64,000 bases of DNA from a virus: positions 3,781 through 67,780 of the IMG/VR virus record IMGVR_UViG_3300035183_001487, one strand, 5' to 3'. Every line of letters starts with the position of its first letter. Position 1 is the first letter of the stretch. The translations under genes were made by a program, and so were the position numbers. The notes under the pieces were generated by a model. The model was not told where the DNA came from, ran no database searches, and saw only the letters and a program-made list of their open reading frames with translations. Of this stretch, positions 142-50,693 are shown one piece after another.

Positions 142-160
142 TGGGCCGAAAACCCACAGG
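142..160 (+). promoter_or_regulatory. Antisense target site, upstream copy (a1/b1-like)
   Basis: TGGG-CCGAAAA-CCCA hairpin overlapping ACAGG; complementary to 268-284. Confidence 0.7.
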
Positions 161-206
161 CATCACGCACCCCTAGTTCCGCGTCCAGGGCTCACCTATT
201 CTTGGC

Positions 207-294
207 GTGGCGGGTGTGGGGCGGAATACAACACCTCACGCCAAGTAGGGAATACCCCCGCGCCCGATCCTGTGGCGTTTTCGGCACCCGCCGC
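207..294 (+). ncRNA. C4-like antisense RNA (P1 C4 / P4 CI type)
   Basis: Closing stem GTGGCGGGTG 207-216 / CACCCGCCGC 285-294; AATACAACACC...GGGAATA arm as I recall from C4-type RNAs; hairpin CGCC-CGATCCTGT-GGCG 261-277 then unpaired TTTTCGG 278-284; complementary sites on both flanks. Confidence 0.7.
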
Positions 295-311
295 CTCCGC
301 GCCGGAGGCAT

Positions 312-343
312 GGGCCGCCGAAACGGCCCCCGAAGAACAGGAG
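312..343 (+). promoter_or_regulatory. Antisense target site, downstream copy (a2/b2-like) overlapping RBS
   Basis: GGGCCG-CCGAAA-CGGCCC hairpin, then AACAGGAG 6 nt before ATG 350. Confidence 0.75.
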
Positions 344-349
344 GGCGAG

Positions 350-601
350 ATGCCCATTCCCAACCCCGCCAGGCCGGAGGTCCATCGGAAGGTGGGGGTC
401 CACGTCATGGACCCCGTCCAGAAGACCCTGGTCATCGCCTTCAAGGCCTACGACCCCATGGACGGCCACAGGCTGGCCCTGCGGCTGTCCCGCATGGCCG
501 AGTTCCAGGGCTGCTACGCGGTGCTCTGCGGTCGCGCCGAGGGTGTGGCCTACTACCCGGGCTCCATGGTCCGCGAGGCCGCTCCGCAGGGGGTGGCCTG
601 A
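350..601 (+). CDS. Hypothetical protein, first gene of early operon
   Basis: AGGAGG RBS then ATG at 350; stop overlaps next start. Confidence 0.7.
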   Translation: MPIPNPARPEVHRKVGVHVMDPVQKTLVIAFKAYDPMDGHRLALRLSRMAEFQGCYAVLCGRAEGVAYYPGSMVREAAPQGVA

Positions 602-867
602 TGCTGCCGCCGCCCTTCACTGGCCCTGAACTGATCCCCGTGGCGAACCGCCTGGACCGGGGCCTCGACTGCTCGCGCTGGGAGTCCATGCGGCTCCTCG
701 CCACCCTTCGCCTCGCGCTGGGCGCCCTCCTGGCGGAGCGGGTGGGCTCGCCCCACAGCCCCGCCGTGCTGGTTGACCACGACCTCCTCAACTTCGGGTG
801 CCACCCCGCCGTGCGTCAGCAGGACCGCGGCCGGATGGTGCCTCCCTCTCCGTCGGAGCCCCGATGA
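601..867 (+). CDS. Hypothetical protein
   Basis: TGATG coupling at 601; ATGA overlap with next gene. Confidence 0.6.
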   Translation: MLPPPFTGPELIPVANRLDRGLDCSRWESMRLLATLRLALGALLAERVGSPHSPAVLVDHDLLNFGCHPAVRQQDRGRMVPPSPSEPR

Positions 868-2006
868 CGAACACCACCACCACCGAGCGCCCCGTCGGGA
901 CGCTCCTGTCGAAGGCCGCCCTGAATTCCGCCCTGCTCGAGCGGTTCCACGGCGGCAAGACCTTCGAGGACCGCGAGACCTACGTCGGCGCCTCGGAAGT
1001 CGGCACCTGCCTGCGCCTCGTGGCGTGGCGCAAGCTCCACCCCGCCGAGTCGCAGATCACCGACCCCAAGAGCGCCGGCCGCATGCGCGCGGGCACGATC
1101 CTCGAGAACGAGTTCGTGCAGATGGTCCGCCTGGCCCTGGGCGGCAAGGTCCGGGAGACGGGCGGCGCGCAGGCCGAGATCGTGGTGCCGGACGCCCCCA
1201 TGCGCCTCCACCCGGACGGCCGCATCCTCGCCTCCGCCATCGCCGATCTGGCGGGCCACGAGATCCATGTCCTCGGCGTCGACGGGAAGCCCATGGTGCT
1301 CGACGCGCTGCCCGAGGGCGACGGCGCCCTGGAGATCAAGACGGCGGCCTCCTACCAGATGCGCCGCTTCCTCCGCGAGGGCCTGTCCCTGGCCTACAAG
1401 GACCAGACCCAGTGCCAGACGGGTTCCCAGGGCCTGAAGTGGGGCCTGCTCGTGCTGGGCAGCCGCGAGAACCTCGAGGACGTCGCCGTCTTCTTCTGGC
1501 ATGCCGATCCCGACGCCTACGAGGCGGCGAAGGAGCGCGCCCGCAGGACCATGGCCGCCGTCGAGAAGATCCAGGCGGGGATCCTCGAAGAGCAGGCTGG
1601 GCTCCCTGAACCCGACACCGAGCGCGGCTACTGCCAGTACTGCCCCATCGCCGACACCTGCCCGGCCCTGGTCGCCGCAAAGGCCGTCGGCGATGCCGCA
1701 CCGATCCCGCCCGACCTCCTGCCTGACGTCGAGGCGCTGGCCGAGACCTACCTGGAGCTGAAGCCCCAGGCCGATGAATTCGAGGAGGCCAAGAACACCT
1801 TGCGGGACCTCCTCATCAACGCTGGCGTCACCAAGGGCGACGTGCTGCCCGACGGCACGAAGATCTCCATGACGCTCAACAAGGGCAAGACCACCGCCGA
1901 CGCGAAGGCTCTGGCCCGCAAGTACCCCACCGCCGCTGCTGACCCCGAAGTCGTGAAGACCGGGGATCCCTACTTCGTCATGAAGATCACGCCCACCAAG
2001 GCCTAG
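864..2006 (+). CDS. Cas4-like PD-(D/E)XK exonuclease with Fe-S cluster
   Basis: ASEVGTC near N-terminus, HPDG...LEIKT nuclease motifs, QTQCQ, C-terminal CQYCPIADTC. Confidence 0.8.
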   Translation: MTNTTTTERPVGTLLSKAALNSALLERFHGGKTFEDRETYVGASEVGTCLRLVAWRKLHPAESQITDPKSAGRMRAGTILENEFVQMVRLALGGKVRETGGAQAEIVVPDAPMRLHPDGRILASAIADLAGHEIHVLGVDGKPMVLDALPEGDGALEIKTAASYQMRRFLREGLSLAYKDQTQCQTGSQGLKWGLLVLGSRENLEDVAVFFWHADPDAYEAAKERARRTMAAVEKIQAGILEEQAGLPEPDTERGYCQYCPIADTCPALVAAKAVGDAAPIPPDLLPDVEALAETYLELKPQADEFEEAKNTLRDLLINAGVTKGDVLPDGTKISMTLNKGKTTADAKALARKYPTAAADPEVVKTGDPYFVMKITPTKA

Positions 2007-2015
2007 GAGCAACCC

Positions 2016-3056
2016 ATGAACCAGCCGCTTCGCACCCTCGAAGCCATGCCACTGCAGGCGCCCCACGGATCGGGCGCCCACGCAGTGGTCAACGCCGCCG
2101 CCGCCCTCGGCGGGATCCGCGACCGCATCCAGATCATCCAGCGGGCCATGAAGGAGTCCATGCAGGAGGACGTCCACTACGGGAAGATCCCCGGGACCGA
2201 AAAGGCCACCCTGCTCAAGCCCGGCGCCGAGATGCTCTGCGCCCTGTTCCAGTTCAGCCCCGAGGTCGTGCCCACGCAGGTGGCGGACTACCCCGACGTC
2301 GTGCGCCCCTGGAAGGGCCGCCGGAAGAAGTGGTTCGACGGGCCCCGGGGCCGGGATTTCTCCTGGGAAGAGATCCAGGGCGAAACCTCCGGCTACTACG
2401 AGGTCATCTCGACCTGCACCATCCGCGCCGCCAACGGGGCCGTCATCGCCACGGCCGCGGGCTCCTGCAACAACCTGGAAAACAAGTACCGCGAGCAGAT
2501 CGTCTGGGACGTCCGGAACACGATCCTGAAGATGAGCGGCAAGCGGGCGCTGATCGCCTCCGTGCTGCTGGCGACCGGGTGCTCCGACATGTTCACCCAG
2601 GACCTGGACGACGACTGGGACGGCGAGCACGACGCTCCCCCAAAGGCCGCCAAGCCCTCCGCGGGCCCGCGGCCTGCAGCTTCGGCGCCGGCGGCCCAGC
2701 CCTCGGGCGGAGCGGGGGGCGATGACTGGGGCCCCTTCCTCAGCGAGAAGCAGCGCGGAGCCGCCTTCAGCAAAGTCAGCAAGCTGAAGCTCGACCACGA
2801 TGCCGGGCACCGAGTCCTCCTCGCCGTCTCGAGGGGCCCCAGGGGCGCCGCGGTCGAGTTCATGAACGTCCTGTTCAGCCAGGACGACGCGAAGATCCGC
2901 GCCGCCTTCGAGGGCCATCCGGCCTGGAAGGCCTCGGCTCCGGAACCCGCCAAGGCCGACGCCTCCGCCACGCCTCCTCCTTCCACCCCGCCGCCGCCCG
3001 CCGGCGCGGCTGTGCAGCCCGGCCTCGAGGACACGGGCTGGCCGCCGGAGCGCTGA
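2016..3056 (+). CDS. Probable ssDNA-annealing/recombination protein
   Basis: HYGKIPGTEKATLLKPGAE...NTILKMSGKRA...MFTQDLDD pattern; directly after exonuclease. Confidence 0.6.
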   Translation: MNQPLRTLEAMPLQAPHGSGAHAVVNAAAALGGIRDRIQIIQRAMKESMQEDVHYGKIPGTEKATLLKPGAEMLCALFQFSPEVVPTQVADYPDVVRPWKGRRKKWFDGPRGRDFSWEEIQGETSGYYEVISTCTIRAANGAVIATAAGSCNNLENKYREQIVWDVRNTILKMSGKRALIASVLLATGCSDMFTQDLDDDWDGEHDAPPKAAKPSAGPRPAASAPAAQPSGGAGGDDWGPFLSEKQRGAAFSKVSKLKLDHDAGHRVLLAVSRGPRGAAVEFMNVLFSQDDAKIRAAFEGHPAWKASAPEPAKADASATPPPSTPPPPAGAAVQPGLEDTGWPPER

Positions 3057-3337
3057 TGGATACGCCCTTCATCCTCGCCAACCTCGGCGTGGTGGCCGTC
3101 GTGGTCGGAGTGCTCGTGCTCTCCGACCGCGACGAGCGGCGCCGCCTGGCCGCGAAGTCGAACCGCGAGAAGCTCGAACGGGAGCGCCTGCAGCTCGAAC
3201 TGGAAGTGGCAAACCGCCAAGCCAGGGCTGAGGCCGATGCGAGCTTCGCCGCGCTCCGGGCCTGGACTGCTTCCTGGATCGCCAAGGGCGGCCCTGAGAA
3301 CTGGGAGCAGTTCGTCTACGCCCGGCGGAGGTACTGA
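3056..3337 (+). CDS. Small membrane-anchored coiled-coil protein
   Basis: N-terminal hydrophobic helix; coupled starts and stops. Confidence 0.6.
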   Translation: MDTPFILANLGVVAVVVGVLVLSDRDERRRLAAKSNREKLERERLQLELEVANRQARAEADASFAALRAWTASWIAKGGPENWEQFVYARRRY

Positions 3338-3735
3338 TGCCCGTCAAGCCCAACGGCCCCACCGCCAGCATCCACAGAGTGCTCTCCGGCCTCGACCTGG
3401 GAGGCATCTACTCCTACTCCGATCTGGCGCGTCGGCTGTATGAAGCCAACCCGGCCCTCGTGGGCTCGAACATCGGGCGCACGATCAAGATCGCCGTGAA
3501 GAGCGGGGCCCTGGTTCGCATCTGCACGGGCAGCTACCGCTTCCTGGGCCCCTTGGCCCAGGCCTTCGACTCCTTCGATTCCGCGGCGGAGCCCGGGAAC
3601 GTCAGGCCGATGCGCGTCTCACCGTCCTACCGCCCCGATCCAATCGCCGAGGTCCTGGCCTCGCTGGCCGCGCTCCACAACCGCCTGGACGACCTCCAGC
3701 GCGCCGTCGAGCGCATCGGCGCGAGGGCGTCATGA
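3337..3735 (+). CDS. Hypothetical, possible winged-helix protein
   Basis: Coupled ORF; helix-helix-GALVRICTGSYR wing-like pattern. Confidence 0.5.
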   Translation: MPVKPNGPTASIHRVLSGLDLGGIYSYSDLARRLYEANPALVGSNIGRTIKIAVKSGALVRICTGSYRFLGPLAQAFDSFDSAAEPGNVRPMRVSPSYRPDPIAEVLASLAALHNRLDDLQRAVERIGARAS

Positions 3736-4148
3736 TCGCCCGGGCCCTCGTGTGCTCCCTGGTGGCCCTGTGGGCGCGCCCCGCCGTGGCCCCGCCTTCC
3801 GGCCCGCGCCCGGATCCGCCGCCCACCACCCTCATGGTCGCCAGCTGGTACGGCCCGAAGCATCACGGCCGCATCACCGCCAGCGGCGAGCGGTTCGACA
3901 TGTACGCCCTGACCGCCGCCCACCGCTACCTGCCCTTCGGGACGCCGGTGTCCTGCAGCGTCGCAGGCCGTTCCGTTGTCGTCCGAATCAACGACCGAGG
4001 CCCCTACGTGCGCCGGAAAGGCCACTACACCCGCGACCTCGATCTCAGCATGGCCGCCGCCAATCGCCTCGGCTACCTCGCCCACGGCGAGGCCGTGCTG
4101 GAAGTCCAGATCCTCACCCCTGAAAGGAGCAGCCATGGCCGCCCCTGA
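3732..4148 (+). CDS. rlpA: RlpA-family lytic transglycosylase (DPBB)
   Basis: ASWYG...TASGERFDMYALTAAHRYLPFGT...VRINDRGPY...DLDLSMAAA signature; signal peptide. Confidence 0.9.
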   Translation: MIARALVCSLVALWARPAVAPPSGPRPDPPPTTLMVASWYGPKHHGRITASGERFDMYALTAAHRYLPFGTPVSCSVAGRSVVVRINDRGPYVRRKGHYTRDLDLSMAAANRLGYLAHGEAVLEVQILTPERSSHGRP

Positions 4149-4380
4149 ACCCTTCCTCTCCCAGGCCGCAACCATCCGCAAGCTCCGCGAGGAGCTGTTC
4201 GGCGGGCATCTGAGCCCCGAGACCTTCGCCACGATGGTGGCGCGTGGCCTGCCCTCCGAATCCGTCCCGGGCTTCAAGTTCCCGCGCTTCCGCTACTCCA
4301 AGGTCGTCGCATGGATCGAGCAGCAGGCCGGCGGCGAGAGCCGCGGCCCGGGGCGCCCCCGCCTGCGGAAGTCGGCATGA
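4135..4380 (+). CDS. Excisionase/AlpA-like DNA-binding protein
   Basis: GAAAGGAG RBS; ARGLP...PRFRYSKVVAWIE pattern; C-terminal GPGRPR. Confidence 0.55.
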   Translation: MAAPEPFLSQAATIRKLREELFGGHLSPETFATMVARGLPSESVPGFKFPRFRYSKVVAWIEQQAGGESRGPGRPRLRKSA

Positions 4381-4847
4381 TCACCAAGTTCGACCCCGCG
4401 GCCTACCCCCGGAACTGGACGCACCCCCCGGTGCCCATCCCGGAGCACGAGGCGCAGGCCGTCATCGTGGAGGCCCTCCAGGCCCATGGCCTGCAGGTCT
4501 GGGTCATCGACGCCGGCGGGGCCGGGATTCGGGGGAAGCTCCTGGGCGTGCTGGTCAAGTTCGGGATCTCGCGCGACCTGGCCCTGCGCATCGCCAAGGC
4601 GGTCTTCGGCGCGGCCCCGACGGCCTGGCCGGACCTCTTCACCATCCTGCCCCTCGGCCAGGCCTGCTTCATCGAGGTCAAGCGCCCGGCCTGCTGGGAC
4701 CCCTGCACCGGGAGGAAGGTGCAAGACGCCGGCGTCCCCACCACCAACCAGCTGCGCTTCCTCGAGGCGGCCGCCAAGCGCGGCGCCGCGGCGGGCGTGG
4801 CTTGGCATCCGAAGGATGCCCTTCGAATCGCGGGGCTCCGGGGATGA
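4377..4847 (+). CDS. VRR-NUC family nuclease / resolvase
   Basis: EHEAQ...WPDL...FIEVKRP...TNQLRFL. Confidence 0.8.
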   Translation: MITKFDPAAYPRNWTHPPVPIPEHEAQAVIVEALQAHGLQVWVIDAGGAGIRGKLLGVLVKFGISRDLALRIAKAVFGAAPTAWPDLFTILPLGQACFIEVKRPACWDPCTGRKVQDAGVPTTNQLRFLEAAAKRGAAAGVAWHPKDALRIAGLRG

Positions 4848-5809
4848 ACTGGACCATTCACCAGGGTGACGCACTGGAAACGCTGCGGGGACTGCCCTCA
4901 GAGTCCGTCCATTGCGTCGTGACCTCACCGCCCTACTGGGGCCTGCGGGACTACGGCCACGATGGGCAGATGGGCCTTGAGGAGACACCCGAGGCCTACG
5001 TCACCGGCATGGTGGAGGTGTTCCGCGAGGTCCGCCGGGTGCTCCGTGCGGACGGGACGCTCTGGTTGAACATCGGGGACAGCTACGCCAGCAGCACCAA
5101 GGGAAGCGGGGGCACTGGAAAAAGTACGCTCGGCGCCGCCAGTGGTGGGAACGGCATAAGCGAGGCAGGCATCCTTCGTTCGCAGAAGCGGCAAGCAATG
5201 GAAGCTCGGAAGGTCGCTTGTGGCCTACCAGAGAGGAACCTCGTCGGCATCCCTTGGCGCCTCGCCTTCGCCCTCCAGGCTGATGGCTGGTATCTGCGCC
5301 AGGACATCATCTGGCACAAGCCCAACCCCATGCCGGAGAGCGTGACCGACCGTTGCACGAAGGCGCACGAATACCTGTTTCTGCTCACCAAGGGGGAGCG
5401 GTACTACTTCGACCACGAGGCCATCAAAGAGGACGCCGTGCGCGGGGCGGCAGGTTCGTCCTTCAACACCGGCAAGACCGCCGAACACCAACTTGGCCGG
5501 GCCAGCACCGCCGAGCGGATGGAGGACGGGAAGCGCAACCGCCGCGACGTATGGACCATCCCGACGAAGCCCTTCAAGGGCGCCCATTTCGCGGTGATGC
5601 CCGAGGCCCTGGTCGAGCCCTGCATCCTGGCCGGATGCCCCTCCGGCGGGACCGTCCTGGATCCCTTCACGGGCTCGGGGACTGTGGGGGTGGTGGCCCG
5701 GCGCCTGGCCCGCGGATTCGTCGGCATCGAACTGAACACGAAGTACGCCCGCATGTCGCTCCGGCGCATCAACGCGGCCCCCATGGGCTTGGATGGGCTC
5801 GCCTCATGA
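4844..5809 (+). CDS. DNA methyltransferase, beta class (N4-C/N6-A)
   Basis: VTSPPYW catalytic motif before VLDPFTGSGT SAM motif. Confidence 0.95.
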   Translation: MNWTIHQGDALETLRGLPSESVHCVVTSPPYWGLRDYGHDGQMGLEETPEAYVTGMVEVFREVRRVLRADGTLWLNIGDSYASSTKGSGGTGKSTLGAASGGNGISEAGILRSQKRQAMEARKVACGLPERNLVGIPWRLAFALQADGWYLRQDIIWHKPNPMPESVTDRCTKAHEYLFLLTKGERYYFDHEAIKEDAVRGAAGSSFNTGKTAEHQLGRASTAERMEDGKRNRRDVWTIPTKPFKGAHFAVMPEALVEPCILAGCPSGGTVLDPFTGSGTVGVVARRLARGFVGIELNTKYARMSLRRINAAPMGLDGLAS

Positions 5810-5815
5810 CCCCCC

Positions 5816-5874
5816 TTGCGCCCCCCGCTGGTGGAGTTAACCTCCACACCCCGGGCCGAAATCCCGAACAGGAG
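5816..5874 (+). promoter_or_regulatory. Promoter plus antisense target site upstream of the replication gene
   Basis: TTGCGC-16 nt-TAACCT; CGGG-CCGAAAT-CCCG hairpin immediately followed by AACAGGAG. Confidence 0.7.
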
Positions 5875-5880
5875 TAGTGC

Positions 5881-5916
5881 ATGACCAGCCGTAGGCCTGC
5901 GAACGGAGGGTGGTGA
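5881..5916 (+). CDS. 11-aa leader peptide coupled to the replication gene
   Basis: AGGAG RBS, MTSRRPANGGW*, TGA overlaps ATG at 5916. Confidence 0.5.
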   Translation: MTSRRPANGGW

Positions 5917-7025
5917 TGGCGCGTCCCGGCTTCATCCACCACCGCAAGTTCAAGCGCCTTTCCAGGGCGCTCGGCTCGCCGGCGCTGGCGAGGGGGTGCC
6001 TAGAGATGCTCTGGGACACCTGCTATGAGGCTGGCGACGACTACCTCGGAACCGCCGAGGACGTGGAGCTATCCGCCTACTGGGATGGGGAGCCCGGGGT
6101 CCTGTGTGAAGCGCTGCTCACCGCTGGCGGGGAGGGGAACCCTGGGTTCATCGAGGAGGTGTCCGGGCGCCCCGGCCACTACCGGGTCCACGACCTGTAC
6201 GACCACGCCCCCGAGTACGTCCAGAAGCGGATGGCCCGGGAGGCCGAGCGCATCGCCAAGGGGCAGACGATCTCCGAAATCCGGAGTGCTGCCGGGAAGC
6301 GCGGGCGGCAGTCCCAGCTCGCCGCCGCCCTGGCAAACGTCGGGCAAACGTCGGGCAAACGTCGGGCAAACGGCGGGCAAACGGCGGACACTTGCCCGCA
6401 AAAACGGGCAAACGGCGGGCAAGCGGCGGCAAACGGCGGCACTCCCGCACCCGCACCCGCACCCACCACCCCAAAGAATCCTCCTCCGCTTCGCTACGGA
6501 GGTTGCTCCGAGGGCTCCTCGGAGCCGCCCGCGGCGAAGGCTTTGGACCCGAAATCGCCAGGAAGGCCCCTGGAAGCCCTGAAGCGACCCCAGGGGCCCG
6601 CTACCCCCGCCGGGAGTCCCGTCCCTGGCCTTCCTGGCCCGGTTCCTCTCAACGGCGGGGCCGTCGTGGCCCTGGTCCCAGCCCTCCAAGGCGCCCAGGT
6701 CCCGATCTCCCAGTCCCAGGTGGACGAGTGGGCCAAGGCCTACCCCGCGGTGGACGTGCCCCTGGAGATCCGGCGGGCCATCGCCTGGCTGAACGCCTCC
6801 CCCACCCGCCTGAAGACCCCGAGGGGTGTCCCCAGGTTCCTCGTGAGTTGGTTCGGGCGCACCCAGGACCAGGGCGGCTCGAAGGGGGTCCCCCCGAAGG
6901 GCAAGGGCCCCGCCTTCGCCTTCGCTCCCCCGGGCCCGAAGGGCATTGACCCCGACCTCGCCCACCTGCTGAGGCCCGATGAGATCGACTTCGAGTACCC
7001 CCCCGAACCCGAGGAGGCATCGTGA
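5916..7025 (+). CDS. Phage replication initiator (lambda O-like architecture)
   Basis: N-terminal HRKFKRLSRALG domain, internal tandem repeats, C-terminal AYPAVDV...WL...RFLVSW domain. Confidence 0.75.
   Translation: MARPGFIHHRKFKRLSRALGSPALARGCLEMLWDTCYEAGDDYLGTAEDVELSAYWDGEPGVLCEALLTAGGEGNPGFIEEVSGRPGHYRVHDLYDHAPEYVQKRMAREAERIAKGQTISEIRSAAGKRGRQSQLAAALANVGQTSGKRRANGGQTADTCPQKRANGGQAAANGGTPAPAPAPTTPKNPPPLRYGGCSEGSSEPPAAKALDPKSPGRPLEALKRPQGPATPAGSPVPGLPGPVPLNGGAVVALVPALQGAQVPISQSQVDEWAKAYPAVDVPLEIRRAIAWLNASPTRLKTPRGVPRFLVSWFGRTQDQGGSKGVPPKGKGPAFAFAPPGPKGIDPDLAHLLRPDEIDFEYPPEPEEAS
6332..6440 (+). repeat. Iteron-like 11-bp repeats, probable replication origin
   Basis: Five tandem GGCAAACG(T/G)CG units, an inverted CTTGCCCG, then about three further copies. 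Confidence 0.75.
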
Positions 7026-7339
7026 GCAGCCTGTATCCCGAGTACCGCGCCGCCGGGCGCTGCGGTGACTGCGGCGCCGACCCTGTGCCGGGCCGTGCCT
7101 TCTGCGCGGCGCATGCCGCCGCCCGCGCCACCCGCCAGCGGAAGTGGAACCCACGGCGCACCGTGCAGCGCCGGGCCTGGGCACGCCTGGGTCGGTGCAT
7201 CGACTGCGGGTCCATCCCCGTCCCCGGCCGCTCCCGCTGCGGCTACCACCTGGAGCAGGCGGCAGATCGCATGGCCGCCCTGCGCAACCGCCAAACCCGC
7301 GGCGCCGAGAACGCCGCCAACCCACAGGAGAATTCATGA
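7022..7339 (+). CDS. Double zinc-finger protein
   Basis: Two GRCxDCG..PVPGR..C..H repeats. Confidence 0.7.
   Translation: MSSLYPEYRAAGRCGDCGADPVPGRAFCAAHAAARATRQRKWNPRRTVQRRAWARLGRCIDCGSIPVPGRSRCGYHLEQAADRMAALRNRQTRGAENAANPQENS
7301..7330 (+). promoter_or_regulatory. Antisense target site upstream of RdgC-like gene
   Basis: GGCG-CCGAGAA-CGCC hairpin then ACAGGAG RBS before ATG 7336. Confidence 0.55.
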
Positions 7340-7950
7340 GCCTCTACCAAGGCGGGCTCGGCCTCCGGCGCTTCCTGGTCCTGGGCCCCGTGCCCGAGGA
7401 CGATGCGCTGGCCGAGGGCCTCGCTGAGAACCGCTTCCGCCCGTTCCAGGACGGCCTCGAGGAGGAGCGCGCCGGCTGGTGCGACTGGCGGAACCCCCTC
7501 ATCATCCCCCCCGACGCGGCCTGGGTCCGCCAGGATCGGTTCGCCGTCTTCGGGCTGCGCATCGACACGCGCCGGGTTCCGTCCGCCCTCCTGAAGGCCC
7601 ACGTGGACCTGCGCATCCGCCAGCTCATGGCGGAGAAGGACCTTGCCTTCATCGGCAAGGAGGCGCGGATCTCCATCCAGGACGAGGTCAAGGCGGAACT
7701 GCTCCACAAGGTGGTTCCGGCGATGCGCGTCTCCGACCTCGCCTGGGACCTGAAGGGCGGCGTCCTCTGGACCACGGCGACGTCTGGCCGGGCGGTGAGC
7801 GCCGTCATCGACCTCTTCATGAAGTCCTTCGGGGCCGAGCTTCAGCCCCTCCACCCGCTGCTGCTGGCGGGCCGCGTGGCCCCCGAGCTTCCGGTGGAGA
7901 CGCTGATGGCGCTGGACCCCATGGACCTCGAGCTTGATGAGGTGGAGTGA
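7336..7950 (+). CDS. rdgC: RdgC-like protein, N-terminal half
   Basis: F.P....EERAGW, LRIDTRRVPSALLK, IQDEVKAELL..V.P...WD motifs. Confidence 0.7.
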   Translation: MSLYQGGLGLRRFLVLGPVPEDDALAEGLAENRFRPFQDGLEEERAGWCDWRNPLIIPPDAAWVRQDRFAVFGLRIDTRRVPSALLKAHVDLRIRQLMAEKDLAFIGKEARISIQDEVKAELLHKVVPAMRVSDLAWDLKGGVLWTTATSGRAVSAVIDLFMKSFGAELQPLHPLLLAGRVAPELPVETLMALDPMDLELDEVE

Positions 7951-8321
7951 TGGGTATCCAAGACCGCGCCCAGGAATTCACCCTTCGAACGTGGACCTTC
8001 ACCCCGGCCGGGTTGGCCAGCGGCAGGTCCATCTCTATCAGCGCCACCTTTGCCATGGACGAGACCACGGCTCGCCTCCGCCTCGCGGCCCGCGGGACCC
8101 CTGTGGACGGGTGGGCCGGGAGGTTCGAGGATTCACCCGTCGAGGTCGATGAGCCGGCCCCCGAAGGCAAGAAGCGGTTCCTCGTCTCCATGTCCCGCAA
8201 GTCTGAGGCCGAGGTCGAGGTCTACGCCGCCGACGAGGACGAGGCCCGCCAGGAGGCTGTGGACTCGGATCCCGATTGGGACAACGAGATCCAGATCGAA
8301 TCTGTGAAGGAGATCAAGTGA
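7947..8321 (+). CDS. Hypothetical protein
   Basis: Coupled ORF; acidic C-terminus VEVYAADEDEARQEA. Confidence 0.6.
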   Translation: MMGIQDRAQEFTLRTWTFTPAGLASGRSISISATFAMDETTARLRLAARGTPVDGWAGRFEDSPVEVDEPAPEGKKRFLVSMSRKSEAEVEVYAADEDEARQEAVDSDPDWDNEIQIESVKEIK

Positions 8322-8878
8322 AGACGCTGCCCATCATCCTCGAAGGGAACCGCGCCTACGGCGAGGAGTTCCTGGTCTGGCTCTGGAAGCGCGGGATTGC
8401 GGACGGCGGCATGTCCGGCCTGGAGGGCGACCTCTCGTGCTGCTTCGTGGACGACTCCGTGCAGCTGGCCTCGGAGCGCGGCGACGTGAAGGAAGTCTCG
8501 CTGCGCAAGGGCAACCCGGCGGAGAGCCAGGAGGCCTTCGAGGCCCTGGCCCGGGGGATGCGCCCCGTCCGCGCAAAGCTCCGGGTCCTCAGCGGCGACC
8601 TGGAGTGGTCCTTCACGCTCGTGGCCTCCACCCTCGACCTCCAGGCCCTCAAGCTGCCCACCACCGCCTCGAAGGACCCGACGGCCCGCCTGGCCGACCG
8701 CCTGTTCCTCATGGAGGAGGGCGTCGCCCACCTGGAGCGCCGCTACGCCGCCTTCCTCCGCGCCAAGGCCAAGGACCCCGGGGGCGTCGAGGCCTCCCTG
8801 AAGTCCTGGCTCCGCGACTCCCTCACCCCGTTCCTCGACCCCGAATCCACCACCACCCCTCCCTGGAGCAAGCCATGA
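8318..8878 (+). CDS. RdgC-like protein, C-terminal half
   Basis: YGEEFLVWLW...EAFEALARG....AKL......EWSFTL...LKLP pattern. Confidence 0.6.
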   Translation: MKTLPIILEGNRAYGEEFLVWLWKRGIADGGMSGLEGDLSCCFVDDSVQLASERGDVKEVSLRKGNPAESQEAFEALARGMRPVRAKLRVLSGDLEWSFTLVASTLDLQALKLPTTASKDPTARLADRLFLMEEGVAHLERRYAAFLRAKAKDPGGVEASLKSWLRDSLTPFLDPESTTTPPWSKP

Positions 8879-9102
8879 AGTCCATCCTCGTCCTCTCCGT
8901 CCCGGCCCTCGTCCTGCAGGCCCAGGTGCCGCCCCCCCCGCCCATCCCCCACGCCCAGGTCCTGGACGTCAAGGTCGCCGGCCCCTCGGCCAGCATCCAC
9001 GTCATCACCGACGAGGCCATCCCGCTCACGGAGGCCCGCATCTACCAGGGCGAGAGGCTGCTCGGCCGCGTCCTGAACATCGCACCCCCGGAGACCCCAT
9101 GA
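8875..9102 (+). CDS. Hypothetical exported protein
   Basis: Signal-like N-terminus; coupled. Confidence 0.5.
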   Translation: MKSILVLSVPALVLQAQVPPPPPIPHAQVLDVKVAGPSASIHVITDEAIPLTEARIYQGERLLGRVLNIAPPETP

Positions 9103-9299
9103 TCCGCATCGCTCGCTCGATCCTTGCCGCCCTCGTGGTGGGCTTCGTCGCCTTCTGGCTCGTCCGCTTCGGGTTCTGGACCGACGGGCTGTTCACCCAG
9201 CGCACCGCGCTCTACTGGACCGCCTCGAAGGTCACCGCCTGGGCCTTGGCCGTCATGATGGGCGGCATGGCGGGGTTCGCCTCATGGAAGGCGCGGTGA
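9099..9299 (+). CDS. Small two-TM membrane protein
   Basis: Two hydrophobic helices. Confidence 0.6.
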   Translation: MIRIARSILAALVVGFVAFWLVRFGFWTDGLFTQRTALYWTASKVTAWALAVMMGGMAGFASWKAR

Positions 9300-9580
9300 A
9301 GCTCCGTCTCCCCCCCTCCCGCCGGCGCCGCCCGGCCGGTTCCCCGCCCTTCGACGCCGCGGCCCTGGCCCAGGTCGCCGAGGCTGCAGCCAGGGCCAAC
9401 GTGGGCCTTGGGGAGGCCTTGGAGGCCTTCCGGCGCGCCTACTTGGCCGAGGCCCTGGCTGTGCACCGGGGCAACGCCTCGGCGGCGGCCCGGGCCCTGG
9501 GCATCCACCGGAACACCCTCCACAAGGTCCTCCGGGGGGCTGGGCGTGGTAAAACGCCCGGTCCCTCGGAGGCCCCGTGA
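9296..9580 (+). CDS. Fis-family HTH protein
   Basis: YLAEALAVHRGNASAAARALGIHRNTLHK. Confidence 0.85.
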   Translation: MKLRLPPSRRRRPAGSPPFDAAALAQVAEAAARANVGLGEALEAFRRAYLAEALAVHRGNASAAARALGIHRNTLHKVLRGAGRGKTPGPSEAP

Positions 9581-9993
9581 TCACCGCTTCGCTCCTCGAC
9601 ATCCAGGTCCAGATGCGGGCGGCAGGCCGGCGCTGCAGGGTCTACGTGGCTGGGCCCTACACGGCACCCACGGCCCAGGGCGTGGCGGCGAACGTCCAGG
9701 CCGCGGTGGCGGTGGGCGTCGAGCTTCGGCGCCTCGGGTTCGTGCCCCTGGTGCCCCACATCACGATCCCCGGCGCCGAGGTGACGTGGAAGGAGGCAAT
9801 GGTGGAGTGCGTCTCCCACCTGCGCACCTGCGACTTCGCCGTCCTGCTCCCAGGCTGGGAGCGCAGCCGCGGCGCCTGTGTCGAGGCCTGGCTCTGCCGC
9901 CGGCGCCGTGGCTTCCCCCTGCTGGTGAGCCTGTCGGCCCTGGAGCAGGTGGTCCAGGCGGGGCAGGAGGCCCCCGGGGAACAGGCGGGCTGA
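9577..9993 (+). CDS. DUF4406 / nucleoside deoxyribosyltransferase-like protein
   Basis: VYVAGPYT...CD..VLLPGWERSRGACVE. Confidence 0.8.
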   Translation: MITASLLDIQVQMRAAGRRCRVYVAGPYTAPTAQGVAANVQAAVAVGVELRRLGFVPLVPHITIPGAEVTWKEAMVECVSHLRTCDFAVLLPGWERSRGACVEAWLCRRRRGFPLLVSLSALEQVVQAGQEAPGEQAG

Positions 9994-10000
9994 CCCCCCC

Positions 10001-10028
10001 TTGACGGCGCCGCTGCGATTTGTACGGT
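10001..10028 (+). promoter_or_regulatory. Sigma70-like promoter
   Basis: TTGACG-16 nt-TACGGT; near-duplicate in front of the tRNA. Confidence 0.55.
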
Positions 10029-10053
10029 TCCCGATCCGCCGTCGGGGGCACCT

Positions 10054-10455
10054 GTGTCCGTCCAGCTGTACCGTTCGCTCGACTTCCTCAAGCTGTTCAG
10101 CCGCGTCTTGACGGGCAAAGAGTACGACGATGCCCAGATCACCGAGGCCCTCGTGCGCACCTGGGAGGAGGCCCCGGCCGACACCCGCAAGAACGGGTGG
10201 CACATCCGGCACGCCTCCATCCGCTACCTCGGCGTGATCTACACGAACCGCGCGACGGCCCGCCTGGTCGCGCGCTGGTCGATCCAGGCCATGGGCGGGG
10301 ACACGCCGCTGGCCCACGCCTACCCCTTGTTCCGGGCCCTCGTGGAGCTTCGCGGCGTGCGCCCGTGGAACCGGGACTACTACGTCTCCAACGCCTTCGG
10401 CCACCGCCTCCGCCGCGGGGAGCGCCGGCGCCCTGATCCACAGGAGTCCTCATGA
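10054..10455 (+). CDS. Hypothetical protein
   Basis: GC3-rich ORF overlapping next start. Confidence 0.6.
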   Translation: MSVQLYRSLDFLKLFSRVLTGKEYDDAQITEALVRTWEEAPADTRKNGWHIRHASIRYLGVIYTNRATARLVARWSIQAMGGDTPLAHAYPLFRALVELRGVRPWNRDYYVSNAFGHRLRRGERRRPDPQESS

Positions 10456-11879: not shown

Positions 11880-12190
11880 TCGACGGTTCCACCGTGGCCT
11901 TACTGGTCATGTCGTCCCTGTTCTATCTGGTGCTCCACTCGTTGGGCAAGAAGGAGTCCAAGGATGTGCGCGAGCGCCAGGTGGCCCTCGAGCACCGCAT
12001 GCGCGAGATGCAGCGCGCCTTTGAGCTGCGGGACTTGAAGGAGCGCCAGCAGGGCGCCATCCCCAGCGGCGTCCTCCTCATGACCTCCACCACCAAGGCC
12101 TGCGCCCACTGCGGGGAGAAGGAAGTCCCTGCGCAGGCTAGGCGCTGCCCGAACTGCGGCGGGGCCCGCTGGGAGATACGCCATGCCTAA
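11876..12190 (+). CDS. Membrane-anchored zinc-ribbon protein
   Basis: N-terminal TM; CAHCG...CPNCGG. Confidence 0.6.
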   Translation: MIDGSTVALLVMSSLFYLVLHSLGKKESKDVRERQVALEHRMREMQRAFELRDLKERQQGAIPSGVLLMTSTTKACAHCGEKEVPAQARRCPNCGGARWEIRHA

Positions 12191-23832: not shown

Positions 23833-23838
23833 CGTGGG

Positions 23839-23897: not shown

Positions 23898-23922
23898 GCC
23901 CCAAAACACCCCAAATTGCCCC

Positions 23923-48581: not shown

Positions 48582-49336
48582 TAGTCCTCCAGCTTCACGA
48601 AAGAGAGAGTCACGGTGATAGCGGCTGAAGAACCGCTCTTATTTGTCACCCTCAAATAAAAGGTTGTCGCAGGGGTGCTATCGGCGTTGCTGCCAACGAA
48701 CACGGGCGCGAGATCGAGAACGAGATTCCCGGAATCCGTCAGGACCTCGCCGATCAGCCCGACCTCGCCCTCTGGGTCGGTGGTGATGGCTCGGCCAACG
48801 TCAGCAGTCCTAAATGCCGCCGTGGAGTAGATCTGAACCCAGGCATCGGCGCTGGTTTCAATCCTGGTGATGAGCGCGCTTTTGGCGACGGTGAGGTCGA
48901 TCTCCTCGGAGGCGCCGTCCGCCAGGGTCCCGGTGACAGCCGTTGCGGGCGTCCTGGCCGGCTGCTCCTGGATGTAGATGGGGTACGTCTCGGGGGTGAC
49001 CGTCTGGGTTCCGGGGAGGACCGTCCACTCCGAGGCGATGCCGCCAGCGTACCGGGCTTGGACAGCGGCCTTCACCACCAGGGGGGATGTGGGCGCCACG
49101 GCCACCTGCACGGATCGGACGTTGGGCCCTACGTCCACGGCAGACGCCACGCGCGCAGCCGCGTCCTCCGGGTCGGATCCGGTGAAAAAGATCACCGTGA
49201 AGCCGACGTGCACGGTCGGCGTGTTCGTGCTCGAGTAGGTCCAGGACGCCTTGAGGATCTTCCTCCCCACGAGCAGGGGGGTTCCGCCGTCGAGGAAGAT
49301 GAGGGCATCGCTGTGCTGGATGGATGTAGTCGGCAT
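48581..49336 (-). CDS. Tail-associated beta-rich protein
   Basis: Thr/Ser/Val-rich; coupled in fibre operon. Confidence 0.6.
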   Translation of the reverse strand: MPTTSIQHSDALIFLDGGTPLLVGRKILKASWTYSSTNTPTVHVGFTVIFFTGSDPEDAAARVASAVDVGPNVRSVQVAVAPTSPLVVKAAVQARYAGGIASEWTVLPGTQTVTPETYPIYIQEQPARTPATAVTGTLADGASEEIDLTVAKSALITRIETSADAWVQIYSTAAFRTADVGRAITTDPEGEVGLIGEVLTDSGNLVLDLAPVFVGSNADSTPATTFYLRVTNKSGSSAAITVTLSFVKLED

Positions 49337-50169
49337 CAGGTCACCAGGGAAATGCCTTCGGGGTCGGCGTCTGGGCTCGCAACCACGAGGGTGGCCGGGG
49401 CTTCGGTCGGGCTGTCATCGGACCACTCGAGCGAGACGGCAGAAGGCGCCGGCGGGACGAAGGACGCCCCGGACTCGACGCCGAGGACTGGGACGGGGGC
49501 CCCAGGGGTGCCGTAGGTCCGCCAGTGCCGGGTTCCCGCGTCGTGGCATCGCCTGGCGATCTCCTCGACCCTGGCCTTCAGCGTGGCGTTGATGGCGCCG
49601 GCGTAAAGGACGACCACGAACATGGCGTAGCCGGAGTGGCCCTCGAGGTCCACGCCGGCGTTCATGCGGGTGTTGTAGTTCAGGCGCCAGCCCGGGCCGT
49701 TCCACCTCGGGATCTGGTAGTAGTCCACGGCGTCCAGCACCTTGGTTCCCGTGAGCCCCAGGGCGTCATCCAGGACGTCGGCCATGCCCAGGTTGGTGGT
49801 CTTCGGCTTGGTGATCTCGGCGAGGATCCTATGCGCGTAGCGCAGGTCCGGCTCCGCCGTGAACCTCGGGACTCCCCAGACGTCGCCCCAGATGTCGAGC
49901 CACGTCCCCTGGGCTCCGTTCTCCGCCTGCTGCTCGAAGACCCACGACGTCTCGGAGACCGTCCAGTCCGTCGCCTGGTCATCGACCCTGGCGAGCCTCG
50001 AACCCAGCACGAGCTGGCGCTCCATGCTCGACATGGCGTCGTCGGCGTCCGGCCCCAGCATCTGCGCCTCGATGCGCAGGCGGGCGTAGAGCCAGCCCTT
50101 GCTGGGGGGCGGCATCGGGAGCAGGCGGCGCAGCTTGGCCCAGGCCGTCTGGTAGGGGGTGGTGGTCAT
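49336..50169 (-). CDS. Baseplate wedge protein (P2 gpI / Mu gp48-like)
   Basis: AQGTWLDIWGDVWGVPR..AEPD..Y..RIL. Confidence 0.75.
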   Translation of the reverse strand: MTTTPYQTAWAKLRRLLPMPPPSKGWLYARLRIEAQMLGPDADDAMSSMERQLVLGSRLARVDDQATDWTVSETSWVFEQQAENGAQGTWLDIWGDVWGVPRFTAEPDLRYAHRILAEITKPKTTNLGMADVLDDALGLTGTKVLDAVDYYQIPRWNGPGWRLNYNTRMNAGVDLEGHSGYAMFVVVLYAGAINATLKARVEEIARRCHDAGTRHWRTYGTPGAPVPVLGVESGASFVPPAPSAVSLEWSDDSPTEAPATLVVASPDADPEGISLVT

Positions 50170-50224
50170 CGCGTCTCCAAGCCGATGCTCCACCACGAGG
50201 CCGCTTGGGCGCGGCCCGGGGTTC

Positions 50225-50249
50225 CACTATCCGGGGGGGGTCGGCAGTC
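50225..50249 (-). promoter_or_regulatory. Putative late promoter motif
   Basis: GACTGCCGACCCCCCCCGGATAGTG upstream of the fibre operon. Confidence 0.5.
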
Positions 50250-50258
50250 CCGACGCCC

Positions 50259-50630
50259 CTACCCGACCCAGGGGAATTCGTCGTCCGCGGCCCGCTTGGC
50301 GGCGCCCTTGCGGGCCCGCTGGACCTGCAGCCTGTGCATCTCGCTCCAGACCCCCATGTAGGCGACGTGCCGGTCGTGCTCCTTCACGGAGGACTTGAAG
50401 TTGCCGTAGGCGATGTCCCGGGCGGCCTGCGCCAGCGCCTCGGCGACCTGCTCCAGGGGCACCAGGGCCCGGAAGCGGTAGTCCCGATCCGGCGTCATCG
50501 TGACCTCGGCTCCCGGGAAGACCCGCTCGATGTCGCCCTTGACCCGGGCCCGGACGAGCAGGTTCTTCCGCCCTGCAGCGCCGGGCGGCTTGACGATGCT
50601 GAGGAATGCGTCGCTGAGGAAGATCCACAT
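50259..50630 (-). CDS. Hypothetical phage protein
   Basis: MWIFLSDAFLSIV...LLVRAR...DY.FRA...YGNFKSSV; own promoter and RBS. Confidence 0.75.
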   Translation of the reverse strand: MWIFLSDAFLSIVKPPGAAGRKNLLVRARVKGDIERVFPGAEVTMTPDRDYRFRALVPLEQVAEALAQAARDIAYGNFKSSVKEHDRHVAYMGVWSEMHRLQVQRARKGAAKRAADDEFPWVG

Positions 50631-50636
50631 GGCTGG

Positions 50637-50693
50637 CTCCTGTTCCGCTTTCGGCGGTTCGGACACCATGCGCCCCGGCCTGGGTTGAGTCAA
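50637..50693 (-). promoter_or_regulatory. Promoter plus antisense target site
   Basis: Minus strand TTGACT-17 nt-CATGGT; CCG-CCGAAAG-CGG hairpin then AACAGGAG. Confidence 0.7.

Follow-up and report, generated by a model that had tools for sequence, protein, structure and literature searches.

A C4-type antisense RNA of a temperate phage with complementary two-part sites at its flanks and at distant operons: a candidate repressor in trans

In this study, we describe a small C4-type antisense RNA, encoded by a temperate microbial-mat phage, which probably represses operons of its own phage in trans, through two-part sites at its flanks and at least four further sites dispersed over the genome. 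We put the chance that this reading is correct at roughly two in three. It is carried by the complementarity between RNA and sites, the architecture and enrichment of the sites, family-wide co-variation and conservation in relatives. C4-type RNAs are single-operon regulators, one RNA controlling one antirepressor operon. If one RNA indeed serves at least four unlinked operons, RNA-based immunity would do genome-wide work usually credited to protein repressors, and regulons could be carried by a two-part loop-junction contact as they are by linear seeds. As far as the compared sequences tell, it is the dispersed sites that are unusual here; the flanking-pair arrangement is already known from other phages.

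The genome of this myovirus-type temperate phage comprises 67,780 bp (67.8 kb) and encodes an integrase, an S24 CI-like repressor, an Ant antirepressor, tail sheath, portal and terminase. Its nearest relatives are prophages of Holophagaceae (Acidobacteriota). The window, i.e. the whole stretch of DNA analysed, covers 64,000 nt of this genome, and coordinates refer to it unless stated otherwise. A first-pass annotation of the window had found no CI-like gene and had proposed that the RNA takes the place of CI. The former is true of the window itself but not of the genome, since the 3.8 kb immediately 5' of the window hold the S24 CI-like repressor, the integrase and the Bro-N/KilAC antirepressor (Ant, genome 2574-3401), the latter upstream of the small RNA. 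Because these three genes lie just upstream, the RNA more likely adds a second layer of immunity than replaces CI, and it probably works beside the protein repressor.

The small RNA extends from 209 to 292 (+). It aligns over its full length with the Rfam family sRNA-Xcc1 (RF02221; model positions 1-87, 39.3 bits, E 1.1e-5 in a 301-nt search), below the curated cut-off of 53 bits; accordingly, a gathering-threshold Rfam scan of the window left it unmatched. The Rfam models C4 (RF01695), c4-2 and c4-a1b1, against which the annotation had proposed to compare it, are absent among the nine matches listed at E<=10 for 100-400, and the IsrK model (RF01394) did not match the window. The designation as a C4-like antisense RNA therefore holds for the type and the flanking sites, not for the Rfam C4 models, the best fit being the sub-cut-off one to sRNA-Xcc1. 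Judged by alignment, fold and compensatory changes, RNA 209-292 is a divergent member of the sRNA-Xcc1 family. It shares with that family the AAUACAACACC and GGGAAUA core, letter for letter, and all three helices; its host group is Acidobacteriota and not Proteobacteria, to which the sRNA-Xcc1/C4-type family is hereby extended. The first reported sRNA-Xcc1 came from a Xanthomonas integron cassette, and the family is usually treated as a virulence-linked small RNA.

The core AAUACAAyACC ... GGGAAUA is exact in the small RNA, where it forms P2 (AATACAACACC, 225-235; GGGAATA, 248-254), and the same exact motif occurs in more than 103 IMG/VR contigs; among 15 core-motif loci tested, eight contain a total of nine RF02221 matches at the cut-off. 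P1 pairs 209-217 with 284-292, and P3 pairs 260-264 with 274-278. A consensus fold of 14 family members including the small RNA, derived from a MAFFT alignment with imperfections in the P1 part of some rows, comprises 13 pairs in P1 and P3, nine of them with compensatory changes on both sides. Two segments are exposed, in the Rfam alignment and also in the minimum-energy fold, in agreement with the first-pass annotation: b', UCCUGU in the loop of the third helix (268-273, extendable to GG), and a', UUUUCGG in the junction (278-284, extendable to C). A -10-like hexamer, TATTCT (197-202, +), stands 6 nt 5' of the RNA start and has a counterpart, TATCCT, in the same place in the orthologous loci L122 and L114; it is possibly the RNA's own promoter. 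The RNA begins with GG at 209, as is described for c4 (PMC5320573), and TATYCT 6 nt before 209 could mark its own transcription start instead of a c4-like 5' end cut by RNase P. Its 3' end adjoins a hairpin without U-tract (GCCUCCG-CGC-CGGAGGC, 293-309, +). Small hairpins of comparable kind are found 3' of other sRNA-Xcc1 family members.

The RNA is flanked by the two-part sites canonical for C4-type antisense RNAs, as had been claimed, and its exposed segments are complementary to both (142-160 upstream, 312-343 downstream). The upstream, a1b1-type site (142-160, +) has the stem TGGG/CCCA with the loop CCGAAAA, followed by CCACAGG, and lies away from any Shine-Dalgarno sequence; in the L122 ortholog the stem becomes TGGA/TCCA, a compensatory change. 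The downstream, a2b2-type site (312-352, +) has the stem GGGCCG/CGGCCC and the loop CCGAAA, and its ACAGGAG (337-343) is the Shine-Dalgarno sequence for ATG 350, which opens an 83-aa ORF (350-601, +, GC3 0.93) without family match. L114 and L122 contain orthologs of both this site and its ORF. Throughout the family, 47 of 76 distinct RNAs have two-part sites complementary to junction and loop, one some 115 nt upstream of the RNA and one some 80 nt downstream, the second running into a Shine-Dalgarno sequence and ATG; the box sequences vary between phages and co-vary with the RNA. This family-wide co-variation indicates that sRNA-Xcc1 works like c4 on the neighbouring gene, and the pairing logic matches that given for c4 RNA in PMC5320573.

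Searching for CCGARA, 0-30 nt and ACAGG retrieved exactly seven sites, all where the first-pass annotation had placed them, together with, trivially, the RNA gene's own complement (284-269, -); the remaining 3,780 genome bases contain no additional site of this pattern. At the first dispersed site (5816-5918, +), TTGCGC and TAACCT spaced by 16 nt precede a stem CGGG/CCCG with loop CCGAAAT (5852-5866) and ACAGGAG (5868-5874). The following ATG opens merely an 11-codon ORF (5881-5916), whose TGA overlaps the ATG (5916) of a 369-aa ORF. The second is operon-internal (7299-7338, +), with stem GCGGCG/CGCCGC, loop CCGAGAA and ACAGGAG (7324-7330) ahead of an RdgC-like ORF (ATG 7336); the A-to-G change in its loop would still permit a G-U pair with the RNA. 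The third (23830-23917, -) consists of TTGACT (23897-23892), a stem CTGG/CCAG with loop CCGAAAA (23862-23848), ACAGGAG (23845-23839) and ATG 23832, and heads an operon of four small ORFs on the minus strand, the last with a helix-turn-helix. At the fourth (50628-50693, -), TTGACT (50693-50688), 17 nt and CATGGT are followed by a stem CCG/CGG with loop CCGAAAG (50657-50645), ACAGGAG (50643-50637) and ATG 50630 of a 123-aa ORF, after which come ORFs with tail- or baseplate-like matches. One further candidate, listed as possible in the annotation, is present but doubtful and atypical (10440-10525, +): its stem CGGC/GCCG, loop CCGAAA and ACAGG (10507-10525) form a weaker site (6 + 5 nt) within the ParB-methyltransferase ORF, of which the Shine-Dalgarno sequence is CCACAGGAG (10438-10446) and the start ATG 10452.

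All these sites share one design. The a-box lies in a loop of 6-7 nt on a stem of 3-6 bp, and, as previously remarked, all stems differ while loop and b-box are kept, at the dispersed as at the flanking sites. Both halves of each site complement, in the correct order, the two segments that the RNA exposes, the paired segments being short (6-9 plus 5-8 nt), and every site is in sense orientation relative to its downstream gene. At least four sites thus lie 5.6-50 kb from the RNA, on both strands, and four cover Shine-Dalgarno sequences (5868, 7324, 23845(-), 50643(-)). ACAGGAG occurs seven times in the genome, six times 5-7 nt before the ATG of an ORF with high GC3; an upstream hairpin is present at five of these six, which bears out the claim of five Shine-Dalgarno sites, with the qualification that the ATG after 5868 is that of the 11-codon ORF. 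The products encoded after the sites are function-unassigned, RdgC-like, HTH-containing or tail-like; a replication gene is absent among the targets of the site-bearing leaders, and the earlier inclusion of replication is without basis.

The motif had been expected to exceed its frequency in shuffled sequence, and it does. With 300 dinucleotide shuffles of the 67,780-bp genome as null, the loose pattern was observed eight times against a mean of 2.63, one shuffle reaching eight; the strict pattern (GCCGARA, 0-25 nt, ACAGGA) was observed six times (five sites and the RNA complement) against a mean of 0.14, with a maximum of two and none of the 300 shuffles reaching six. CCGARA was found in hairpin loops 19 times (7.5 +/- 2.6 in 100 shuffles). 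Individually, the site hairpins are not stabler than shuffles (z -1.85 to +0.67). A duplex-energy scan of 84 gene starts ranked g07 first, g19 second and g71 seventh and left the 23832 gene and the 5881 ORF outside the top 15; the genome-wide scan was dominated by GC-rich windows and did not single out the sites.

Since this site stands at the head of at least four further transcription or translation units, one RNA would repress several phage operons in trans, beside the protein repressor. The closing helix and the conserved core would hold the two short single-stranded segments, a' and b', in place. On each target mRNA, a short hairpin with a loop of 6-7 nt would present the a-box, (G)CCGARA, and the b-box, (C)ACAGGA(G), a few bases 3' of it, would be the Shine-Dalgarno sequence of the target; ribosomes would be kept from binding once a' had paired with the loop and b' with the Shine-Dalgarno sequence. 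The 5852 site may act through the 11-codon ORF and its coupling to the following gene. Production of the RNA, its pairing in vivo, its repressive effect and the timing of its action are here predictions from sequence.

The leaders also resemble each other upstream. A promoter-like site (108-136, +; TTGATT, 17 nt, CAACCT) ends 5 nt before the first hairpin, and its layout is kept in L122 and L114. The pattern at the sites is TTGAYT or TTGCGC, 16-17 nt, and NAACCT or CATGGT; the 7301 site has no promoter. TTGACT or TTGATT occurs five times in the genome, three times directly before a site. Four sites had been said to follow sigma70-like promoters: sequences of the TTGAYT/TTGCGC type are indeed seen, but a sigma-70 consensus scan of 1-12000 called no promoter at threshold, the 108-136 site included. 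Directly upstream of the -35 lies a 19-nt element with two TTTGGGG repeats, AATTTGGGGCGTTTTGGGG (85-103, -). A second copy with one difference (23917-23899, -) abuts the -35 of the 23897 promoter, and a degenerate copy is located in the CI-Ant intergenic region (genome 2465-2483). The element is a candidate operator for a DNA-binding protein.

Related Holophagaceae prophages (G001, G032) support trans action as far as sequence comparison can, and they retain sites of this kind alongside a cognate RNA. After the g50 homolog, the ortholog of the 23839 site has the compensatory stem CGGG/CCCG in place of CTGG/CCAG in G001 (G001:C117) and the stem GCGC/GCGC in G032 (G032:C24:187138). G032 carries a syntenic prophage, matched by 40 of the 84 crude ORFs of the phage, and an sRNA-Xcc1-like RNA (47.3 bits) with identical a' and b', followed by a U-tract; within the 100 kb examined, no matching site lies on the RNA's own strand. 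In the 3.0 Mb of G032, the pattern CCGARA, 0-25 nt, ACAGGAG, 4-9 nt, ATG has three matches, all in the prophage and 33-47 kb from the RNA, while the reversed-pattern control has none. A looser pattern gave three matches in G001 against five for the reversed control. The g19 homologs (RdgC-like ORF) of G001 and G075 are without the site, and a search of G001 yielded no homolog of g17 or g71. G034, a fragmented assembly, has three sites, and its cognate RNA was not found by the pattern used. RF02221 scores of relatives are 51.1 (L114), 51.7 (G075) and 47.3/46.7 bits (G032). Because three related genomes alone carry dispersed sites, the comparative sample is small. The dispersed set, which the annotation had thought undescribed, is unusual: all four near-complete comparison phages with sRNA-Xcc1-type RNAs, like the other sRNA-Xcc1 members examined, have the flanking pair only.

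Tentatively, and with more doubt than belief, one may go further and regard the C4-class RNA as the master post-transcriptional immunity repressor of this lineage. It would have been freed from its cis sites, as the stand-alone gene of G032 with promoter-like site and U-tract suggests, and would control a portable leader of promoter, loop hairpin and ACAGGAG, gained and lost among operons, including those of the HTH regulator and tail genes. With the TTTGGGG protein operator it would form a double lock, and it could silence every homo-immune superinfecting genome at several points simultaneously.

Repression in trans has to be weighed against other readings of the same sites. The distal sites could be a promoter-leader cassette spread by recombination (a 5' stabilising hairpin with a strong Shine-Dalgarno sequence), its complementarity to the RNA inherited from a2b2 and of little or no distant effect. 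The TTGAYT promoters common to three sites, the 19-nt element common to two and the gain and loss of sites among relatives agree with this, as does the fact that trans action is deduced from sequence. Stems and spacers, however, all differ while both boxes are kept, which argues for the boxes being under selection and against recent copying; the promoterless 7301 site does not fit, orthologous sites hold their boxes despite compensatory stem changes, and, given the RNA, pairing with identical boxes is hard to avoid. We consider a cassette of this kind unlikely. Rather improbable, too, is that hairpin and ACAGGAG are the site of an RNA-binding protein, be it a translational repressor or a boxB/N-type antiterminator, with the RNA regulating its own flanking sites only. 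Proteins that bind RNA, as at lambda boxB and the MS2 operator, do recognise a short stem of variable sequence with a conserved purine-rich loop of 6-7 nt, the hairpins stand at predicted transcript 5' ends, and most neighbouring small ORFs are without assigned function. A protein site would nevertheless leave unexplained why both halves complement the exposed RNA segments in order, the general target design of the family, and why G032 has a stand-alone RNA with the same two segments and no local site; nor was a candidate RNA-binding protein found.

Instead of simple repression, the RNA might activate the leaders, or these might act as sponges titrating it, several leaders competing for one shared RNA; IsrK, beside C4 and sRNA-Xcc1 genes in L017, is reported to act as an activator of translation (PMC12197685). 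We hold this for quite improbable, as the predicted leader folds leave the Shine-Dalgarno sequence free, with nothing for the RNA to open, and b' pairs with the Shine-Dalgarno sequence itself, as described for c4 in PMC5320573. Double-stranded DNA operators for a repressor, suggested by a short inverted repeat just 3' of a promoter-like sequence, are very improbable, because the repeat arms vary freely while centre and asymmetric flanking box are conserved, the opposite of DNA operators, every site is sense-oriented, and the TTTGGGG repeats are the better operator candidate.

The natural leaders, whose stems differ and whose boxes are shared, offer a testable set for target selection by structured kissing contacts. 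Among known systems, the P4 CI RNA is cut from the operon it controls, and its seqB pairs with seqA and seqC on both sides; the likeness is an immunity RNA with pairing sites either side of itself, but CI terminates transcription of one operon, whereas here the b-box is a Shine-Dalgarno sequence, in several operons. Seed-pairing small RNAs such as prophage DicF use one linear seed, usually Hfq, and mostly host-gene targets. They share the several unlinked mRNA targets and the pairing at ribosome-binding sites, and differ from the two-part structured loop-junction contact with the phage's own operons. Likewise, c4 of P1/P7 (immI) is a small structured RNA with exposed a' and b' and sites a1b1 upstream and a2b2 downstream, b2 lying over the ribosome-binding site of the following ORF, in an immunity region where an antirepressor and a protein repressor coexist (PMC5320573); the c4 target listed in a 2025 review is ant mRNA (PMC12197685). 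The phage RNA differs in being unmatched by RF01695, in its at least four extra sites and in gene order, icd/ant following c4 in P1 and Ant lying upstream of the RNA here. IsrK of Salmonella Gifsy-1, an immunity-region RNA, controls an antirepressor operon via a short coupled ORF and is reported to activate translation of a downstream ORF (PMC12197685); the coupling at 5881-5916 is reminiscent of it, although IsrK is a reported activator and has another fold. In L017, IsrK stands in tandem with C4 and sRNA-Xcc1 genes, and in the relative G075 the antirepressor is placed after the RNA.

The small RNA encoded at window 209-292 (+) belongs to the sRNA-Xcc1 family (Rfam RF02221). It aligns to this family over its full length with 39.3 bits (E 1.1e-5), a score below the cut-off of 53 bits, and at the gathering threshold Rfam reports only a tRNA in the window. 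Its membership follows from the exact RNA core (AATACAACACC then GGGAATA), a pattern also present in more than 103 IMG/VR contigs, from RF02221 matches at cut-off in 8 of 15 tested core-bearing loci, and from the consensus fold of 14 members including this RNA, in which the closing helix and the third hairpin are recovered and 9 of 13 pairs carry compensatory changes. The first-pass annotation had regarded the RNA as C4-like; the Rfam models C4, c4-2 and c4-a1b1 give no match even at E<=10. One core-bearing locus, L017, harbours isrK, C4 and sRNA-Xcc1 genes in tandem. The two exposed segments are those originally described, UCCUGU (b', 268-273) in the loop of hairpin P3 (260-264/274-278) and UUUUCGG (a', 278-284) in the junction, with P1 formed by 209-217/284-292. 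The first G of the RNA is preceded at 6 nt by a -10-like TATYCT (window 197-202), which recurs in the same relative place in the related loci L122 and L114, so that the RNA 5' end could mark the start of transcription instead of cleavage by RNase P. In IMG/VR, GGGAATA..TCCTGT..TTTTCGG matched six loci, all of one identical low-GC sequence lacking the RNA core, which we regard as chance.

Concerning the targets of the family, the 45-nt stretch following the core was taken from every distinct RNA and two-part complements were sought in the flanks. These searches were limited to the boxes; a looser version was dominated by stem matches. At the IMG/VR loci L002-L104, 47 of 76 distinct family RNAs have a two-part site both ~115 nt upstream and ~80 nt downstream, with the downstream site extending into the Shine-Dalgarno and start-codon region. 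Box sequences vary between phages and always match the resident RNA (a-box/b-box for instance TCGAAAC/CTCAACG, CTCAAAA/CAAACAA or GCTAGTAACT/AAAAGGAA). For c4, the antisense immunity RNA of phage P1 with its sites a1b1 and a2b2, an Acinetobacter study outlines that b' blocks the ribosome-binding site, specificity being due to a' (PMC5320573). The co-varying flanking sites match this logic, and the sRNA-Xcc1 family therefore works like c4, though the two are separate in Rfam. Sites 142 (a1b1) and 312 (a2b2) are the canonical flanking pair of the present phage.

Two-part sites, consisting of an a-box (G)CCGARA complementary to a' in a hairpin loop and a downstream b-box (C)ACAGGA(G) complementary to b', had been reported at window 142, 312, 5852, 7301, 10507, 23839 (-) and 50637 (-), and all seven were found there. 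In the whole genome, CCGARA, 0-30 nt, ACAGG occurs at exactly these seven sites and, trivially, in the complement of the RNA gene. The motif exceeds shuffled sequence: against 300 dinucleotide shuffles of the genome, this loose pattern is modestly enriched (8 observed vs 2.63 in shuffles; 8 reached in 1/300) and the strict pattern GCCGARA, 0-25 nt, ACAGGA strongly so (6 vs 0.14; 6 reached in 0/300). ACAGGAG is found only seven times in the genome, six times as a Shine-Dalgarno sequence 5-7 nt before ATG, and five of these six have the upstream hairpin, in agreement with the five sites for which this role had been claimed. It also holds that stems vary and boxes are kept: in all sites the a-box sits in a loop of 6-7 nt, closed by a stem of 3-6 bp that differs from site to site. 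The individual hairpins are no stabler than shuffled sequence (z -1.85 to +0.67). When the 84 gene starts were ranked by duplex energy, a measure that discriminates poorly in this GC-rich genome, ORF g07 came first, g19 (the RdgC-like ORF after site 7301) second and g71 seventh, with the other two site-bearing starts outside the top 15. Site 10507 departs from this pattern: the Shine-Dalgarno sequence of the methyltransferase gene is CCACAGGAG, and the loop-CCGAAA hairpin with ACAGG lies 55 nt inside the ORF. It had been listed as possible; the motif is present, but its position within the ORF leaves the site doubtful. CCGAAA-loop hairpins without an ACAGG box occur at 2574-2600 (+) of the phage genome (L001), 4 nt after the antirepressor ATG, and at window 23175-23144 (-), where the ATG of the third ORF in the 23839 operon follows after ~14 nt. 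Both may be half-sites or may have arisen by chance.

Sites 142, 5852, 23839 and 50637 start 5-8 nt after promoter-like sequence (TTGAYT or TTGCGC, 16-17 nt, NAACCT or CATGGT), which would place the hairpin at the 5' end of the transcript. To this extent the claim of four sites just after sigma70-like promoters stands, but a scan of window 1-12000 for consensus sigma-70 promoters called nothing. TTGACT/TTGATT occurs only five times in the genome, three times before a site, and the promoter layout is common to L122, L114 and the Holophagaceae genome G001. Taken together, hairpin stability, promoter scan and the incomplete duplex-energy ranking weaken the picture of the sites. Site 7301 overlaps the end of the preceding ORF and would thus uncouple the RdgC-like gene inside an operon. 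Site 5852 is followed by an ORF of 11 codons (window 5881-5918 region), whose stop codon TGA overlaps with the ATG of the following gene (TGATG); the latter has its own Shine-Dalgarno sequence, GGAGGG. This arrangement suggests translational coupling of the 11-codon ORF to the next gene and recalls control via a coupled leader ORF. The 23839 operon ends with a gene for a small helix-turn-helix protein, and the 50637 operon continues into ORFs with tail/baseplate-like matches. No recognisable replication gene follows any site, and the proposal that replication is among the silenced functions was not borne out. Directly beside the -35 of two site-bearing promoters, and in opposite orientations, lies an element of 19 nt in which two TTTGGGG repeats are spaced 10 nt apart (window 85-103 (-) and 23917-23899 (-)), and a degenerate copy is located at L001 2465-2483 between the CI-like and Ant genes. 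The element is a candidate operator of the phage's protein repressor, in which case these two promoters would be under both protein and RNA control.

Dispersed sites are not ordinary in the sRNA-Xcc1 family. In the available flanks of the other family RNAs, extra box-restricted matches show no excess over a reversed decoy (93 vs 124), also under stricter rules (30 vs 55) or with a start codon required (8 vs 15), and none resembles a ribosome-binding site. Likewise, in four of four near-complete virus records (93-100% complete) the record-specific pattern is confined to ~250 bp around the RNA gene, the remainder of the 44-65 kb having no match. The same strict search in the present phage gives three further sites (5852, 23839 and 50637), all with start codons; 7301 escapes this search solely owing to a G in its loop, with which a G-U pair would form.

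A search for the phage helicase in the bacterial class matched 6 of 157 genomes. One of them, G032, carries an 80-kb syntenic prophage matching 40 of the 84 crude phage ORFs. Three paralogous sRNA-Xcc1-like RNAs with three box specificities lie in its immunity region (L191 10675-12343 (-), i.e. G032:C24:220,675-222,343) and score 47.3, 46.7 and 29.2 bits, all below cut-off. For two of these RNAs, flanking sites with RNA-specific boxes are present. The third is placed like the RNA studied here, between antirepressor and RecE-like gene, has identical b' (UCUCCUGU) and a' (UUUUCGG) and ends with a U-tract; the 100 kb examined contain no matching site on its own strand. Throughout the 3.0-Mb G032 genome, CCGARA, 0-25 nt, ACAGGAG, 4-9 nt, ATG has only three matches (reversed control 0), all in the prophage, on the strand opposite to the RNA and 33-47 kb away. 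The first is orthologous to site 23839 (stem GCGC/GCGC), the second precedes a homolog of ORF g48 and the third an 80-aa ORF. RNA and leaders are thus kept together in this lineage, also where cis sites are absent, and we consider this the best available evidence for action in trans. G034, a fragmented assembly, has three such sites, and the patterns TCCTGT..TTTTCG and GGGAATA..CCTGT..TTTCG found no cognate RNA in it; G082, G007 and G100 have no such sites. The leader of the 80-aa ORF, a loop-CCGAAA hairpin with ACAGGAG, is identical in G032:C24:173353 and G034:C210:4277 (L181/L182), and the equivalent position in the window lacks a site. By eye, the 80-aa sequence resembles a putative AP2-type DNA-binding domain.

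Relatives of the RNA locus were sought with a pattern keeping core and b' loop, which yielded two true relatives, L114 (a 3-kb contig of G001) and L122 (a 2.1-kb metagenome contig). Both have the order of the window: antirepressor, small ORF, a1b1, RNA, a2b2 and a homolog of the 83-aa ORF (61-85% protein identity). The a1b1 stem shows a compensatory pair, TGGG/CCCA in this phage and TGGA/TCCA in L122. A second G001 contig is syntenic with window 23.1-29.5 kb (helicase 78%, g50 62%), and at the 23839 position it has stem CGGG/CCCG vs CTGG/CCAG here, with identical loop, CACAGGAG and ATG. On the negative side, the g19 homolog of G001 has no site, homologs of g17 and g71 were not found in this genome, and the loose pattern matches it three times vs five for the reversed control. 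In the same bacterial family, a prophage of G075 encodes a family RNA with different a' (box GTCAGAAC) and has the flanking pair only, directly before the antirepressor, with no other site in 140 kb. Across 133 Holophagaceae genomes, scanning for the motif returned 30 matches vs 7 in the reversed control; apart from two in G001, these were rejected as host leaders or as lying antisense to a conserved coding region.

Complementarity, architecture, enrichment and co-occurrence in relatives are thus observed features of the sites. The 3.8 kb upstream of the window encode a tyrosine integrase, an S24 CI-like repressor and a divergent Bro-N/KilAC antirepressor, and the phage is therefore temperate, with a protein repressor of the conventional kind. 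The earlier statement that no CI-like gene is visible is correct for the window itself, but not for the genome. Since this repressor is present, the RNA is best seen as a putative second lock beside it, similar to P1 immI, with the difference that here several operons would be affected at once. The RNA would be made from the leader of an early transcript starting near 140 or, alternatively, from its own start at the conserved TATYCT. On each leader, its a' would pair with the loop of the hairpin and its b' with the Shine-Dalgarno sequence, and initiation would be prevented. From the sequence we infer RNA expression, pairing in vivo, and the direction and timing of the effect. We give roughly two chances in three to the reading that the RNA binds the leaders in trans and represses several phage operons as a second lock.

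The leaders could instead be bound by a protein, the leader cassette could have spread without function, the sites could act as a DNA operator, or the RNA could serve activation or titration. All four are less well supported than trans repression by the RNA, chiefly since in every site the two boxes fit the two exposed segments of the RNA, and since G032 retains the RNA although it has no local target. In its list, a 2025 review of phage small RNAs names ant mRNA as the c4 target (PMC12197685), and the Acinetobacter study speculates, in a passage on C4-like RNAs, that many copies may have acquired bacterial targets (PMC5320573). In the literature on c4, C4-like and sRNA-Xcc1 RNAs we found no C4-type RNA described as having several targets within the phage that encodes it; this scope leaves out supplements and the founding sRNA-Xcc1 paper, and a prior mention is possible. 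A C4-type RNA with several targets within its own phage would so far be a new variation on the known c4 logic.

The virus record comprises 67,780 bp (window, bases 3781-67780) with a G+C content of ~70%. IMG/VR relatives sought with the RecE-like protein, the major head protein and the 1784-aa helicase were not found, and GenBank phages include no close relative (head protein identity <=35%; DNA matches restricted to methyltransferase stretches). Profile searches of the phage genome identified terminase, portal, major head protein, baseplate wedge and tail sheath, moreover two DNA methyltransferases, a RecE-like exonuclease, an RdgC-like protein and the 1784-aa SNF2-type helicase. In the latter (window 24134-29488 (-)), an InPase-family domain (E 2.6e-48) is joined to a C-terminal SNF2/helicase region; in five Holophagaceae genomes, the portions that match it are 47-82% identical. 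A tRNA gene (63.5 bits) is located at window 21933-22004 (+), between the head-morphogenesis block and the minus-strand operon. Two DNA runs of microbial-mat metagenomes, but no RNA runs, are listed as containing the phage sequence, and these two are possibly its source.
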